DNA of 63,265 nucleotides from an uncultured Gammaproteobacteria bacterium (GTDB lineage Bacteria; Patescibacteriota; Microgenomatia; UBA10105; UBA927), in the NCBI GenBank assembly GCA_964629685.1, contig CAZVTT010000005.1, forward strand, positions 1 to 63,265, in the 5' to 3' direction. The stretch's first letter is position 1. Each line of letters begins with the position of its first letter. Of the stretch, positions 38,141-61,018 are shown in pieces. The notes beneath the pieces are model-generated. The model ran no database searches. It saw only the letters and a program-made list of their open reading frames with translations, and was not told the DNA's origin. The translations under genes were made by a program, and so were the position numbers.

Positions 38141-39439
38141 ATGGACCAAAAATCGATCGAAGCCAGTTACCCTATTTCTTTCCGGGAAGACATTGCCAAA
38201 AGCCTGGGAAGCCATTTGCGGCGGCACGATTCCGTGGTAATTATGGGCATGAAACGCGTGGGAATCAGTAATTTTTTACGCTTTTTTCTGCACCACAAAG
38301 ATATTGCCAATACCTATATAGAACCCAACGCCAAACATTTATTTATCCCGATAGATTTAAATGACCTGGTTGAACGCGAAATTTTTCCGTTCTGGACACT
38401 GACGCTGAAACGGTTGGTAGATACCATAGAAGCCTCTTCCCTTTCCGAACAGACGAAACAACAAGCAAGACGACTTTTTACTGAAAGCATTCAACTGAAG
38501 GATCTGTTTGTAACCGTAGACAGCGTACAAAAAGTCATTAATGAAATCGTAGCTGCAGACAGAATCCCGGTGCTTTTTCTGATCCGGTTCGACCGCCTGA
38601 AAGATGCCGTAACCCCGGAACTATTCAGTAATTTGCAGGGGTTAAAAGACGCGGCCAAACAAAAATTGTCGTATGTATTTACCACCTACCGGCCGCTGTA
38701 TGAACTCTCTCCGGAAGTATTTAAAAAATCCGCGCTTTCGGTATTTTCCAAAGACATGTCGCTTCCTCCGGCTACCGATCAGGATATGCAGGCAATTCTA
38801 AATACGTTGCAGGAACGCTACAGATTGGAACTATCTGATGCGCAAAAACAATTTTTGCTCGAACTTTCTGCCGGGCATGTGCAATATCTGCAACTCAGCA
38901 TGATTAAACTGCATGAACTCGGTGCCGTTCCGAAAACCAAAGCGGAATTATTCGGATTACTGCAGGGACATGAAGAAATCGTGCTGCAGTCCGAAGAGCT
39001 GTTTGAAAGCTTAACCAAACAGGAACAAGAGGTATTGCTGACCATAAAAGATCATAAACAACCAGACCCCGATGCAACCCAACGGGCCAGATATCTTTGG
39101 GATTCGGGAATACTCCGCGGTAAGGGAGCTGAAAATTTCATATTTAATCCGTTGTTTGCAGACTATGTCAGCAAACTCCACTCCGGAAAGAACGGTAACG
39201 GAGACTTTACCAAAAAAGAACATTTGCTGTTTAGTTTCCTGAAAAAACACAGCGGAGAACTTTGTGAACGGGAAGACATTATCGAAGCCGTTTGGCCGGA
39301 ATATAAAGATTTAGGCGTATCCGACTGGGCCATAGACCGTCTGGTCGCCCGCGCCCGCGCCAAACTGAAAACCCAAAACAGTCAGTACGAAATAGTGACG
39401 GTTATTACCCGTGGATATAAATTGGTAGAAAAAGGATAA
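38141..39439 (+). CDS. P-loop NTPase-like domain plus C-terminal OmpR/PhoB-type winged helix regulator
   Basis: GMKRVGIS (degenerate Walker A), CEREDIIEAVW...AIDRLVARARAKL...VITRGYKL; promoter TTGTTT-N17-TACAAT. Confidence 0.85.
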   Translation: MDQKSIEASYPISFREDIAKSLGSHLRRHDSVVIMGMKRVGISNFLRFFLHHKDIANTYIEPNAKHLFIPIDLNDLVEREIFPFWTLTLKRLVDTIEASSLSEQTKQQARRLFTESIQLKDLFVTVDSVQKVINEIVAADRIPVLFLIRFDRLKDAVTPELFSNLQGLKDAAKQKLSYVFTTYRPLYELSPEVFKKSALSVFSKDMSLPPATDQDMQAILNTLQERYRLELSDAQKQFLLELSAGHVQYLQLSMIKLHELGAVPKTKAELFGLLQGHEEIVLQSEELFESLTKQEQEVLLTIKDHKQPDPDATQRARYLWDSGILRGKGAENFIFNPLFADYVSKLHSGKNGNGDFTKKEHLLFSFLKKHSGELCEREDIIEAVWPEYKDLGVSDWAIDRLVARARAKLKTQNSQYEIVTVITRGYKLVEKG

Positions 39440-46055: not shown

Positions 46056-46439
46056 TTAAAACATTCCGCCGGGAATACCATTACCCACCACGAACCAAAT
46101 TCCGTGCAGATATAACCCTACCCACAACGCGACACCTGCACCGGAAAGCCAAAGTATCCATTTGGGAATTTTACCCGTTTGACGAATGACCAGATAGATA
46201 AGCGGAAGCAATACGGCGGTAGATATGGGAATCCAGGCAATAAGCTGCAATTGCCGCCAACACGTAATTTCGCGGCAGGGCCAGACGATTTCAGATAACC
46301 AGATAACGCTGGGGACGAGAAGTGCCGAAAGAAAAATTGCCAAAAAGAATGACTGCGTTACCCGCAAAGCAAGCGGAGGCACGGAATGTCGCTTTTTTAC
46401 TGTTTTTCGTATCGTATGAGCAGGTCGCTTGGCAGGCAT
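46056..46439 (-). CDS. small 3-TM membrane protein
   Basis: TATACT 6 nt before ATG 46439; three hydrophobic segments. Confidence 0.7.
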   Translation of the reverse strand: MPAKRPAHTIRKTVKKRHSVPPLALRVTQSFFLAIFLSALLVPSVIWLSEIVWPCREITCWRQLQLIAWIPISTAVLLPLIYLVIRQTGKIPKWILWLSGAGVALWVGLYLHGIWFVVGNGIPGGMF

Positions 46440-46520
46440 ACCACTAGTATAACAAGTTAGTTGCAAGTTGCTAGTTGAGATTGTACCAACCGTCAATCAA
46501 CAACCATCAATCAGCAATTA

Positions 46521-46600
46521 TTTATGATGGCATCTGTATGAGTTTGACACCTCTTGACAAAGTTTGATAGCTGATGATACTGTGTGATTAGTAATGATCA
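46521..46600 (+). promoter_or_regulatory. promoter overlaid by a 10-bp-phased TG(A) array
   Basis: TG at 46525, 35, 45, 55, 65, 75, 85 and 95; TTGACA at 46544 and 46554. Confidence 0.65.
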
Positions 46601-46691
46601 TATTCGCAGATCATTCCCCCTCTTAGACTGCACACAGATGAGGGATTTCCATACCACGCAAGAAACATTGCGACATCGGAAAGGAATACCT

Positions 46692-46892
46692 ATGGCACTT
46701 GGAGATGAATGGCCAGATTTATTAACAGTACGTGAAGTAGCTAAAATCCTGCGCGTTTCTCCGCTGACTATTAAGCGCTGGGGCAAACGGGGTAAATTAC
46801 CCGCAATCCGGATAAATTCGCGGGGTGACCGACGCTACAAAAAAGAAGCGGTCATGTGGTTGCTGGGACTTCAACAAAAAGGTCAAGTGTAA
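46692..46892 (+). CDS. BldC/excisionase-like MerR-type HTH DNA-binding protein (66 aa)
   Basis: LLTVREVAKILRVSPLTIKRWGKRGKLPAIR..SRGDRRY; SD AAGGA. Confidence 0.9.
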   Translation: MALGDEWPDLLTVREVAKILRVSPLTIKRWGKRGKLPAIRINSRGDRRYKKEAVMWLLGLQQKGQV

Positions 46893-46984
46893 CGTCACGA
46901 CTAGTGTATTAACATACCATTCCGTGGTATGTCAGGCCACTGATCCGCTTCCTCTCTTACGGTATTCTGATATACACCCACATT

Positions 46985-47539
46985 GTGAGTCTGATTGTGA
47001 AACATGTTGCCGTCGTTCCTATCATCGGTGTTGGCATAGGTACTTCCCTGCTGTTAGCGGTAAGTGCCTGGCTGTATTTTTCCCCACAAATCCGATCAAC
47101 CACCAGCGCACATCCGATCGTAACACCACCGGCTGTTTCTCCCACTATCTCTGTCCCTAAAAACACCCCCGTACAAGGTGAATCATCCGCACTCCCTTTA
47201 CCTCAAGGGAAAGTCCCCTTTTCTGTTAGTTCCGGACAAAAAACCGGACCCCAATTCCGGAACGGATTCATAGATCCATACGACCCGAAAACCGGTGAAA
47301 CACAAACCGTTTCTGTACTGATCACAGGTAAATCACCCGTTATCACCGTAACAGCCACTATGAGAACGGACACAGCATCAAAAACAAATACCATGAAATT
47401 ACTGGAGGGTACTGCCGCGGATGGCAAATGGGAAGGCAGTTGGACAGTAACCGATACGCACCACCAAACATACAAACTGATTCTACACGCACTGGATTCC
47501 ACCGGAACAACAAATGTGATTGATATTACGCTCCGATAA
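46985..47539 (+). CDS. single-TM protein with C-terminal Ig-like domain (cassette 2 adaptor)
   Basis: Paralog of 31126..31770 (GK.F.V.SG..GP, DPK.G, TDT, W.V.DTH, ITxR end); start codon uncertain. Confidence 0.75.
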   Translation: MSLIVKHVAVVPIIGVGIGTSLLLAVSAWLYFSPQIRSTTSAHPIVTPPAVSPTISVPKNTPVQGESSALPLPQGKVPFSVSSGQKTGPQFRNGFIDPYDPKTGETQTVSVLITGKSPVITVTATMRTDTASKTNTMKLLEGTAADGKWEGSWTVTDTHHQTYKLILHALDSTGTTNVIDITLR

Positions 47540-47540
47540 T

Positions 47541-48479
47541 ATGAAATCATTTCTGCGCATCTTGATTCTGACCGGAGGGTGTTTGATGGCACTTTGTACC
47601 CTTCCGCAGGTGCATGCGTGTACAACTACGGCTAATTCCACCCTTATGATCACCACTTCCTGTGGATTCGGTGGCGAGGTAGCCGGTGTCGATAACGGCA
47701 ATATCATCATTAATTCCGGTGTTACGTTTACTGTCCAAAGCGGACAGACAATCCTGCGGAATTCGGGAAATTCCATTCAGAATAATGGGAATATTGTGCT
47801 TATTGGAACCGCAAAAATTATGCAATCCTATTTGTGGTGTCTGGATGCCGACGCTGACGGATATTGTGCCGCGTTAACATACAGTTACGGCGATGTAAGT
47901 CCGGGAGCTGGGTACAGAAGACTGACGAATATGACGACACTTGCTACTGCAGACTGTAACGACAGCGTATATGGCAATAGTTGTGCGAAAAGAGTTTTTG
48001 CAATGGCGGTATCTAACGGTAACCTTGGCGGCCTCGCCGGTGCTGATTCCCTATGTCAGTCACGGGCGAATATATATGTTACCAATCCCGGAACTTTTAA
48101 GGCATGGATGTCTTCTACTACGGTAAGTGCCAGCAGCAGAATGACCCATTACACGAGTAATTACACACTGGTGGATAACACCGTCATCGCCAATGGCTGG
48201 TCAGATCTTACCGATGGCACGTTAGACAGTATCATTAATAAGGATGCAAACGGAGCAACGTTTTCTAACAATACCATCTATACGGATACCAACGCCGCCG
48301 GGGCGGTTTTTTCCGCCAATGCGACATACTCCTGCAACAACTGGACGAATGCCGGTGCATCCTATTCGCATGCTCCGGGGGCTACCAATGCGACGGATTT
48401 CTATTGGACCACCACCAATAGTCCTTCCGAAATGAAAACGTGCAATTATGCCGGCGGAATATTCTGTTTTGAACAGTAA
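47541..48479 (+). CDS. secreted protein with DUF1554-like C-terminal domain (cassette 2)
   Basis: Signal peptide, N-module shared with 30161..31114, KRVF....NGNLGGLAGADSLCQ and terminal IFCFEQ. Confidence 0.8.
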   Translation: MKSFLRILILTGGCLMALCTLPQVHACTTTANSTLMITTSCGFGGEVAGVDNGNIIINSGVTFTVQSGQTILRNSGNSIQNNGNIVLIGTAKIMQSYLWCLDADADGYCAALTYSYGDVSPGAGYRRLTNMTTLATADCNDSVYGNSCAKRVFAMAVSNGNLGGLAGADSLCQSRANIYVTNPGTFKAWMSSTTVSASSRMTHYTSNYTLVDNTVIANGWSDLTDGTLDSIINKDANGATFSNNTIYTDTNAAGAVFSANATYSCNNWTNAGASYSHAPGATNATDFYWTTTNSPSEMKTCNYAGGIFCFEQ

Positions 48480-52767: not shown

Positions 52768-53322
52768 ATGAAACGAACCTACTGGTTAATACTACTCTGC
52801 GTATTGCCGGCGCTCGCGCTGGTATTTACGGTCAAAGTGAACGCGGAAAATCAGACCACGTTCATCCCAATCACCCGGACATCCGTTTCCACAGGAACAC
52901 CGACTGGTACACGAACTCCTGTGATGACACGCACACCCGTTGGAACTCCGACACCGGACACCCGGACTGCCTGTACACTTGAAGAGGCATATTATGAGCC
53001 GGAATACAATATCCGAATCTTCCTGACATCCTCCGGAAGACCGGTATATGCCGTCGCTCTTATTTATTATGCCGACGTTGATAGTATTGGCATCGTGCTG
53101 GGCGAACTGACTGACGAGTTTTTCACACCGGAATTTGGCATCGCCGTTGATGACGCTCCCGCAGAAAGTGAACTCATTACACTGGAGGGAACACTAACCC
53201 AAGAAGGAGACTTTCTGAGCGTCACAATTGGGCGCTGCGGCGACGACTTTCGGTTTGAATACGAACTCACCCAAGTGACGGGTGGCGTGCCAGCCCATCC
53301 GACCAATACGCCGAAACCATAA
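52768..53322 (+). CDS. secreted protein with Pro/Thr-rich linker
   Basis: Signal peptide, TP repeats, SD GAGG. Confidence 0.75.
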   Translation: MKRTYWLILLCVLPALALVFTVKVNAENQTTFIPITRTSVSTGTPTGTRTPVMTRTPVGTPTPDTRTACTLEEAYYEPEYNIRIFLTSSGRPVYAVALIYYADVDSIGIVLGELTDEFFTPEFGIAVDDAPAESELITLEGTLTQEGDFLSVTIGRCGDDFRFEYELTQVTGGVPAHPTNTPKP

Positions 53323-53468
53323 AGTAACCTTGCGCGAAAGATACCCCAGGTACAAGAGCGGCTGTGCTATGACTGCCACTTAGCATGTTCGCTGCCTCCG
53401 CTCTTGTATCGTTTCCGTATGGTTTGTGTTCTCACCGTTCTCTAGACTTCCCTTTTTTCAAATTCAAG

Positions 53469-60319: not shown

Positions 60320-61018
60320 TTACGCGGTTGCAGTAAGCTCCGGGGTCTGTTCCAGTAAGCGGTCGTAGACCATAGCCCCGGCAAGCATGGAAACGGGCAG
60401 TGTGACCAGAATACCCACACCGAGCAGAATCACACCTATGAAATTTAACCCCATCACAGCGAGACTGAAGAGCAGCAATTTGCCTTTAACACCATGGGTT
60501 AGTGCCCAACTATTCCGCAATGACTGCACGATACCGGCCTTGCAGTCCAGAATAAAATACGTATAGAACTGTAGCGATACCATCAGGAAAATACCCGGAA
60601 TTATAAGAAACAAAAACCCGACAAAGAGTACTACGCCGTTTAATAATGACGCGATGCCGTACGGAATCATTCGTCTGACCGCTACCTCTGCAGTTTGACG
60701 GAATGGCTTCGGCTGACCGCGCACATAAGAAAGATAGACACCAACAAGCATAAGTGTAACGGTACCGTTTACGGCCCATGACAATACGTTCTTTATCAGT
60801 TCAAAAAAACCGCTAACCATACCGACCACATCCTGCGGGGCGGATGAAAACGGCAGCAATGCTACCTTTTGCACACCGCTAAAAACCACTTGAAACACAA
60901 AAATTATGATAATGGGTAGTAACGCCAAACCGATAAAATATAAAGGATTACGCTTATATATTTGCCAGGAAGCGCCTAACACTTCCCGAATTGAAAATGA
61001 CTTTTTTGTATTTGTCAT
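60320..61018 (-). CDS. integral membrane protein (DUF975-like)
   Basis: ~5 TMs, FLIIPGI..., SLRNSWALTHG pattern. Confidence 0.75.
   Translation of the reverse strand: MTNTKKSFSIREVLGASWQIYKRNPLYFIGLALLPIIIIFVFQVVFSGVQKVALLPFSSAPQDVVGMVSGFFELIKNVLSWAVNGTVTLMLVGVYLSYVRGQPKPFRQTAEVAVRRMIPYGIASLLNGVVLFVGFLFLIIPGIFLMVSLQFYTYFILDCKAGIVQSLRNSWALTHGVKGKLLLFSLAVMGLNFIGVILLGVGILVTLPVSMLAGAMVYDRLLEQTPELTATA

Follow-up and report, generated by a model that had tools for sequence, protein, structure and literature searches.

The stretch analysed here (the window, 63,265 nt; contig CAZVTT010000005.1 of assembly GCA_964629685.1) carries on its plus strand, at 46692–46892, a gene for a 66-aa stand-alone MerR-like winged-helix protein of the BldC type (MALGDEWPDLLTVREVAKILRVSPLTIKRWGKRGKLPAIRINSRGDRRYKKEAVMWLLGLQQKGQV), identified with Pfam, PDB, AlphaFold2/Foldseek and NCBIfam, and upstream of it an array of TG dinucleotides in 10-bp phase. 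Direct reading places TG at 46525, 46535, 46545, 46555, 46565, 46575, 46585 and 46595, in exact 10-bp steps, and TGA in 7 of the 8 phased units, the exception being TGT at 46535. These positions and counts, as well as the core units TTGACA (46544), TTGACA (46554), TTGATA (46564) and ATGATA (46574), are as given in a preliminary description of this DNA. Written unit by unit, 46521–46600 reads tttaTGAtgg catcTGTatg agttTGAcac ctctTGAcaa agttTGAtag ctgaTGAtac tgtgTGAtta gtaaTGAtca. The conserved core, a putative operator (46531–46600, plus strand; about -67 to +10), consists of seven 10-bp units, each with an A/T-rich tract followed by TG. The eighth and most upstream unit (tttaTGAtgg, 46521–46530, plus strand) is present in this genome and is not conserved in orthologs, whose consensus at the 46525 slot is ATATCA, without TG; it may therefore be due to chance or be a gain specific to this genome.

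The array overlaps the predicted promoter of the gene. A promoter scan assigned the -35 hexamer TTGACA to 46554–46559 (plus strand), where it coincides with array unit 4, and the extended -10 element TGaTACTGT (46575–46583, plus strand; TG at 46575–46576, hexamer TACTGT at 46578–46583, 18-bp spacer) coincides with unit 6, so that the earlier statement that the array spans both elements was borne out. Between the two lies a spacer element, TTTGAT (46563–46568, plus strand). The transcription start is predicted, from the position of the -10 alone, at about 46590. The predicted 5' untranslated region (UTR; 46590–46691, plus strand, ~100 nt) contains the Shine-Dalgarno sequence GGAAAGGA at 46678–46685, and the start codon of the BldC-like open reading frame (ORF) follows 7 nt after it. 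The N-terminus MxLGDxWPD is conserved in orthologs and a longer, GTG-initiated frame is not.

Regularity of this kind is not expected by chance. For the window, 100 dinucleotide shuffles gave an expectation of 0.02 for a run of just 6 phased TG. In the 1.79-Mb genome, scanned on both strands, the run of eight TG and the run of six TGA are both unique (analytic expectations per genome of 6e-4 and 4e-5, respectively), the longest other period-10 TG run is 5, and at least 5 of 7 phased TGA are reached at the array locus alone. The same scan found nothing comparable to the period-10 array at control periods of 8 and 11, while control periods of 9 and 12 showed a codon-periodic background (TG runs of up to 8 at period 9) with no TGA run of 4 or more at either. 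With a position weight matrix (PWM) of the full 70-bp block, the array promoter scored 61.5 bits vs -14 for the next-best site in the genome.

The near-identical orthologs of the gene belong to Candidatus Gottesmanbacteria, those of Woese-, Curtiss- and Levybacteria being more distant, and the window accordingly belongs to a Microgenomatia genome. When 45 distinct orthologous promoters from Gottesmanbacteria were aligned by anchoring on the -35, a 75-bp block was found to be conserved in all of them, representing ~35 genera. In 29 aligned upstream regions, it appears as an ungapped block, TTTGATnCCTC-TTGACAA-nGTTTGAyC-nnnGnTG(a)TAYnnT-TGTGAnTnnTAATGATA, between unalignable flanks. The frequencies of TG in the seven slots of the 45 promoters are 0.69, 0.69, 1.0 (the -35), 0.84 (the spacer), 1.0 (the extended -10), 0.80 and 0.44; on average 5.47 of the 7 slots are filled in the array register vs 0.02–0.78 in the nine other registers, and 29 of the 45 promoters have TG in at least 6 of 7 slots. 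The pooled unit is y-W-T-T-T-G-A-Y-m-n, in which the base before G is A or T at a frequency of 0.90 (T at 0.81) and G is almost excluded at the next three positions. Phased arrays upstream of orthologs, the search for which had been proposed as a check, thus recur in the same register in 45 Gottesmanbacteria promoters. Runs of at least 3 phased TGAY at period 10 numbered 57 in 492 kb of loci vs 0–5 at control periods, and nearly all of them were the array promoter. The three-unit pattern TTGAY-N5-TTGAY-N5-TTGAY occurred 22 times in 61 genomes vs 2 in the control, and since 16 of the 22 lie in the gene's own promoter, the site travels with the gene. Because the 75-bp block is conserved between unalignable flanks and its TGs keep one register, the alignments indicate that the array is under selection.

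The conservation extends beyond the usual promoter elements. Sigma-70 promoters normally have no sequence constraint between the -35 and -10. In the 29 aligned orthologs, TTGAC of the -35 is invariant, and T.TGA of the spacer element is, by information content too, conserved as strongly as the -35, with T, G and A invariant and one T nearly so. The orthologous -10 occurs in two forms, TGaTAYnnT with an 18-bp spacer and TGTAYTGT with a 17-bp spacer; the 18-bp spacer is found in half of the orthologs, the TG is invariant, and as the form of the -10 switches along with spacer length, the TG column never moves. Judging from these alignments, RNA polymerase does not explain the conservation of the spacer T.TGA, the TTTGAT at -47, the TGTGA at -5 and the +5 unit. 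No consensus RNA structure was predicted for the conserved block (alifold returned an open chain), which points to a function at the DNA level, and neither the block nor the 5' region had an Rfam match; the block was accordingly rejected as a structured RNA. An mRNA hairpin with the last array unit as its 5' arm (here AATGATC...GATCATT; mean z of -0.26 over 39 orthologs) was rejected too as a general explanation. Promoters in tandem or overlap were likewise rejected, since in the consensus neither the upstream boxes nor the spacer box has a partner -10 at 16–18 bp.

Several further sequences were noted around the array and in the leader. Promoters of one subclade (L004, L007, L010, L012, L020, L043, L067 and L072) have a perfect DnaA-box, (G)TTATCCACA, at about -60, where the others have cTGCAc; CATGTCGCA occurs further upstream in L012, L020 and L060, and L012 also has TTCCGCA there. 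These DnaA-box sequences may represent a DnaA input into the BldC-like gene. The 5' UTR varies among orthologs in both sequence and length (~20 to 150 nt), and a CTGCCC motif ahead of the Shine-Dalgarno sequence is common. Inserts in the 5' UTR of six orthologs (L009, L018, L019, L024, L025 and L028) are short tandem repeats, e.g. CTAAGTAA/AAGTAAC units, or consist of a long purine-rich arm followed by a pyrimidine-rich arm, potentially pairing. Just upstream of the array in the window are the tandem repeats AGTTGCA (x2.7, 46459–46477) and CAACCATCAATCAA (x2.2, 46487–46517), the latter reading TTGATTGATGGTTG x2 on the minus strand. The repeats at 46459–46517 overlap the annotated TTG start of a minus-strand ORF (46056–46496) that is unique to this genome.

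Pfam matched HTH_17 (5e-11) and MerR_1 to the 66-aa protein over residues 10–59. A phmmer search of PDB gave the two BldC entries 6AMK (E = 2e-9) and 6AMA (E = 1e-8), the next match being at 4e-3. The AlphaFold2 model (pLDDT 82.6) consists of strand-helix-helix-wing-helix only, with no dimerisation or effector domain, and in a Foldseek search with this model the top 7 matches were all BldC chains (48–50% identity, root-mean-square deviation 0.8–1.6 Å), followed by HiNmlR, RacA and Pukovnik Xis. The best NCBIfam model was HTH_BldC (NF033787), whose curated cut-off of 77 bits was not reached (46.3 bits), and the excisionase-domain model TIGR01764 was passed (36.1 bits vs a cut-off of 28.8). Since HTH_BldC is the best model and yet remains below its cut-off, the protein is, by sequence, a sister subfamily of BldC rather than BldC by the NCBI definition. 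The likeness to Streptomyces BldC seen in the preliminary description therefore stands insofar as BldC is the closest relative in both sequence and predicted fold, but not as strict family membership, and the wing differs. Residues R29, W30, R47 and R48, equivalent to BldC Arg30, Trp31, Arg47 and Arg48, are invariant in 19 diverse orthologs, and the recognition-helix KRW and the wing IRINSRGDRRY are invariant even in other classes. The equivalents of BldC Lys33 and Arg47-Arg48-Tyr49 are also kept and nearly invariant, and by alignment only, those of the head-to-tail interface are retained as well (E15-R21 for the Glu16-Arg22 salt bridge, L20 as a conservative replacement for the hydrophobic Phe21, and V22, L10 and I39 for Val23, Leu11 and Ile40), all but the Phe21 position being likewise nearly invariant.

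Xis proteins form head-to-tail filaments on phased direct repeats. The Xis factors (lambda Xis and mycobacteriophage Pukovnik Xis, PDB 4J2N) share the fold class of the 66-aa protein (Foldseek rank 10, TM 0.71), which passes TIGR01764; however, the identity is only 29%, the contig lacks an integrase, and most of the genomes examined have the gene at a fixed place after rplL. An excisionase identity was rejected because of this fixed chromosomal position and the lack of an integrase (PF00589) on the contig; the two tyrosine recombinases in the genome are both off this contig. The classical MerR regulators (HiNmlR, SoxR, BmrR) have a DNA-binding domain of the same family (Pfam MerR, MerR_1), but the 66-aa protein has neither their coiled-coil dimerisation domain nor an effector domain, and the direct repeats and 17–18-bp spacer found here contrast with their palindrome in a 19–20-bp spacer.

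The closest known system is BldC of Streptomyces (PDB 6AMK, 6AMA; PMC5859096), likewise a stand-alone MerR-like winged helix (66–68 aa for the two proteins), and equivalents of its Arg30, Trp31, Lys33, Glu16-Arg22 and Arg47-Arg48-Tyr49 are kept here. BldC, a monomer, lines up head to tail on direct repeats whose number can vary; in the major groove the specific contact comes from Arg30, which hydrogen-bonds to a guanine and stacks against the thymine 5' of it, i.e. at a TpG step. The AT-rich tract immediately preceding this TpG has a narrowed minor groove, which is read by the wing, as in the whiI-opt bottom strand, TG TCCG AATTG TCCG AATTG (Schumacher et al. 2018, PMC5859096). His46, the minor-groove reader, and Gly44, located at the interface, are both essential, G44E abolishing binding (PMC5859096). 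The candidate site here resembles BldC sites in consisting of promoter-overlapping direct repeats with an AT tract and a TpG per turn (compare the smeA-ssfA operator, -60 to -10), and by its sequence the array fits the BldC grammar of an A/T-rich tract plus TpG once per turn, at a 10-bp pitch. It differs in having 7–8 units of 10 bp, of TTGA type, on the gene's own promoter, whereas BldC occupies 2–4 units of 9 bp (AATTxxxxC). The protein differs in its wing (IRINSRGDRRY, with one extra residue and Asp for His46) and in having Leu for Lys26, and the host is a bacterium of the Candidate Phyla Radiation (CPR) without a developmental cycle. The one-residue insertion in the wing might be related to the 10-bp rather than 9-bp pitch.

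Since the BldC-type code and residues match, and the conservation of the block is not explained by RNA polymerase, we infer that the protein binds its own array, a conclusion to which we give slightly better than even chances when both signs of regulation are counted. By analogy with BldC, the 66-aa protein would be monomeric in solution and would place one protomer per helical turn on the array, with R29 (the Arg30 equivalent) contacting each TpG step, the basic wing (RRY) sitting in the preceding A/T-rich minor groove, and the protomers touching head to tail. The seven conserved units (eight here), from about -67 to +10, would take in the -35 TTGACA, the spacer TTTGA, the extended -10 TG and the start-site region; because these elements are all covered, a filled filament would bend the DNA and occlude the promoter. 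Steep, cooperative negative feedback would then hold the level of this very highly conserved protein constant. Such an autoregulatory filament is plausible and, from the BldC analogy, appears mechanistically well motivated. That the array is a self-operator for a head-to-tail multimer giving cooperative autorepression is our leading reading, tentatively held at somewhat short of an even chance, and with the same reserve we consider repression by occlusion a likelier sign of regulation than activation.

A number of observations weigh against the self-operator. 1) The array is lineage-specific: the best-of-7 phased count falls with ortholog identity, from 5.2 at 95% or more to 4.0 at 90–95% and 3.0 at 85–90%, and below 85% it is about 2.5–2.6, the control-period level. 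Outside Gottesmanbacteria the array is at background, even though orthologs there keep an invariant recognition helix and wing; the promoters are of an ordinary type, TTGACc/TGATATAtT, in Curtissbacteria and other classes, and contain a different repeat pair, TTTGTTACAG-TTTGTTAC, in Levybacteria. 2) The -35 and the extended -10 themselves account for two of the seven conserved TGs. 3) The BldC residues His46 and Lys26 are replaced by Asp46 and Leu25, and the Gly44 region is NSRG instead of LGG (a one-residue insertion); the protein scores 46 bits vs the NCBI cut-off of 77 for BldC. 4) BldC units are 9 bp long and of AATT type (AATTxxxxC; PMC5859096) vs the 10-bp TTGA type here, and autoregulation of BldC is not reported in PMC5859096 or PMC6428758. 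5) Other HTH_17 proteins in the genome could bind the array instead. In favour of the self-operator, another small HTH_17 gene in the genome (C7:1393, ~98 aa, apparently leaderless) also has phased repeats over its own promoter, with three exact 10-bp copies of ATTGTATAnT (ATTGTATAGT ATTGTATACT ATTGCATATG) running from the -10 into the start codon (C7:1340–1400).

The protein could also bind its array as an activator or architectural factor, bending or untwisting the DNA within and around the 17–18-bp spacer to the benefit of RNA polymerase, much as MerR-type proteins do at over-long spacers, and giving positive feedback or a switch. This would agree with BldC both activating and repressing (PMC6428758) and with the MerR relationship of the protein, MerR activators acting via the spacer (PMC5859096). 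One conserved unit lies in the middle of the spacer, which is 18 bp long in half of the orthologs, and the sole RNA contig of a near-identical strain in 20 kb covers the gene, suggesting high expression. However, the units lie over the -35, -10 and start site on one face along ~75 bp, a layout more typical of occlusion, and a spacer of 17–18 bp is near optimal and needs no remodelling; we regard activation as improbable. TpG/CpA are the most flexible dinucleotide steps, and the array might work without the protein, its in-phase TpG steps and -35-like TTGAY boxes causing anisotropic bending and the recruitment or wrapping of RNA polymerase; the block would then be a strong promoter under unusual constraint that serves an abundant protein. 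The two invariant TGs are indeed those of the -35 TTGACA and the extended -10, the transcript seems abundant, no regulon of similar arrays was found, and distant orthologs lack the array and have ordinary promoters. Yet the architecture is shared by none of the genome's other promoters, those in the vicinity of ribosomal genes included, the upstream TTTGAT boxes are poor -35 hexamers without a partner -10 at 16–18 bp, and we know of no sigma-70 promoter feature with sequence conservation of the spacer and start site equal to that of the -35. A protein-independent array is rather unlikely on this evidence.

A different DNA-binding protein, i.e. another HTH_17 protein or a response regulator reading direct repeats 10–11 bp apart, could occupy the array as well. 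The genome has eight HTH_17 domains in six ORFs (including two more small proteins and three long ORFs with N-terminal HTH_17, two of these ORFs having tandem copies), head-to-tail binding to direct repeats is known for OmpR/PhoB-type regulators (PMC5859096), and an OmpR-type winged helix-turn-helix (OmpR-wHTH) regulator with CTGACA boxes ~11 bp apart is located 8 kb away. However, the array is tied to the BldC-like gene in every genome, this gene being its sole invariant partner, and the grammar of the units matches the BldC contact code, so that we consider another binder quite unlikely. The neighbouring OmpR-wHTH regulator (38141–39439) was rejected as the conserved binder because clear orthologs are found in only ~14 of 36 family genomes, compared with the array in nearly all. 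Chance, or neutral sequence linked to a conserved promoter, would account for the eighth unit (46525) not being conserved, but is scarcely credible for the array as a whole, given an expectation of 6e-4 per genome, a register kept in 45 promoters and 57 phased TGAY runs vs 0–5.

The preliminary description had suggested that a genome scan for 10-bp-phased TGA arrays would define a regulon. Scanning for TGA/TTGAY arrays did not do so, as essentially only the gene's own promoter was recovered in this genome and 60 relatives. In this genome, strict TG/TGA runs, the 70-bp block PWM, a pooled-unit PWM over 3–5 units and spacing histograms revealed no period-10 excess beyond the array locus. Only three 300-bp windows genome-wide have at least 3 phased TGAY pairs, namely the array locus, C9:32268–32567 and C3:150903–151202. 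Apart from the array locus, the one intergenic region genome-wide with at least 4 phased TGAY pairs is C9:32295–32642, located between WecG/TagA-type and family 4 (GT4) glycosyltransferase genes. It has TTGATA-type units ~10 bp apart, five of them (TATTGATAnn; TATTGATACA TATTGATAGC TATTGTTAC TATTGATAGC ...) being on the minus strand, and the plus strand has two runs of three units each; from this sequence it is a candidate second target of the BldC-like protein. Since the neighbouring GT4 gene has matches at the paralog level only (33–41% identity), no orthologous intergenic regions can be compared for this array. The third window contains a four-unit phased TGAT run (C3:151150–151202), which lies inside a long ORF just past its two HTH_17 domains.

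Other sequences related to the array or to HTH_17 genes were observed. A near-perfect two-unit copy of the -35/spacer pair, TTGACTACGTTTGATC (CCATTGACTACGTTTGATCT), occurs beside a tRNA gene at C4:60370 (60360–60390); with the -35/spacer pair score it reaches 23.5 bits vs 24.5 in the array promoter itself and 14.9 at the site ranking next, and no plus-strand ORF or known RNA was found downstream of it. Two long ORFs, in C9 (~19.3–27.2 kb, minus strand; ~2620 aa) and C3 (150.5–155 kb, plus strand; ~1510 aa, running off the contig end), each open with two tandem HTH_17 domains. The stretch following these domains in the C3 ORF resembles, by eye, a transmembrane helix, and two copies of TTTGCATAGG, 21 bp apart, lie ahead of the C9 ORF.

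The gene was found in 61 of 61 sampled relatives, with 86–98% identity (mostly 91–98%) over ~35 genera of the family and 68–90% over the class. In the same genomes, ribosomal protein L7/L12 showed 73–87% identity in the family and 44–77% in the class, and an ordinary regulator was 50–60% identical; by these sequence comparisons the BldC-like protein is more conserved than L7/L12. Its replacement of HU was rejected, as HU is present in 41 of 41 relatives. Phylum-wide, 57 of 301 genomes had a match at E<=1e-8 (a count that includes paralog-level matches), among them 17 of 17 sampled Microgenomatia. The label of a probable global regulator in CPR was therefore too broad: besides all sampled Microgenomatia, a few other families have the ortholog, and from these searches the gene is class-wide (Microgenomatia) rather than CPR-wide.

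In most bacteria, the place after rplL is occupied by rpoBC. Here rplL (ribosomal protein L7/L12; 45619–46005, plus strand) is the upstream same-strand neighbour, conserved across Microgenomatia and other classes, and in most genomes examined, other classes included, the BldC-like gene lies 0.3–3 kb after rplJ-rplL on the same strand. Its usual downstream neighbours in relatives are a convergent GalT-like gene and then a cytidylyltransferase/DUF359 gene. The genes of adhesin cassette 2 (46985–48479) and the minus-strand ORF 46056–46496 are next to the gene in this genome alone, and the suggestion that the protein may control the cassette is unsupported, the cassette being an insertion in this genome only and the ancestral neighbour being GalT-like. 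An extended -10-like sequence, TGATATACA (46968–46976), precedes the first cassette gene (GTG at 46985) at a distance that fits a leaderless transcript, and this cassette gene may therefore be independent of the promoter of the HTH gene. A hairpin noted by eye after the stop codon of the BldC-like gene (ACATACC-N7-GGTATGT, 46911–46931, plus strand) has no T-run, and the scan listed no canonical terminator; it is possibly a weak terminator between this gene and the inserted cassette.

Among public RNA, the region was found in one RNA-type run only (mud), in which a single assembled contig of 219 nt, derived from a near-identical strain, covers 46549–46765, i.e. the leader and the 5' half of the gene. 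The run has nothing else of this organism in 20 kb, not even rplJ or rplL. That the lone contig in 20 kb covers this gene suggests that its transcript is abundant. The contig starts at 46549, 40 nt upstream of the start predicted from the -10 and 7 nt after TGTATGAG (46535–46542), and this start could reflect a secondary, genome-specific promoter or DNA carry-over. Elsewhere in the window, short contigs of the same run match 53185–53416 (0 mismatches in 70 nt and 10 mismatches in 143 nt), which hints at a conserved or highly expressed element.

To our knowledge, gene regulation in CPR/Patescibacteria is barely understood, and the literature searched contained no link between these bacteria and BldC. 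The 66-aa protein and an 80-bp DNA fragment make a concrete and cheap test object. Should the filament model fail, the unusual constraint on this promoter block would still have to be explained. In a broader and speculative form of the model, which we think unlikely as a whole, the protein would be a class-wide, possibly essential BldC-type architectural regulator of Microgenomatia, fixed after rplL, whose filament of 7–8 protomers on -35-mimicking 10-bp units competes with the sigma factor at its own promoter as a concentration-sensing switch, and which perhaps also acts on short TTGATA arrays in surface-glycan clusters (e.g. C9:32295–32642). If the filament model is true, the mechanism of BldC, a developmental regulator of Actinobacteria, would also operate in a core factor of ultra-small bacteria that controls itself, and the recognition grammar of this factor would be given as well, with a TpG after an A/T tract once per 10 bp.

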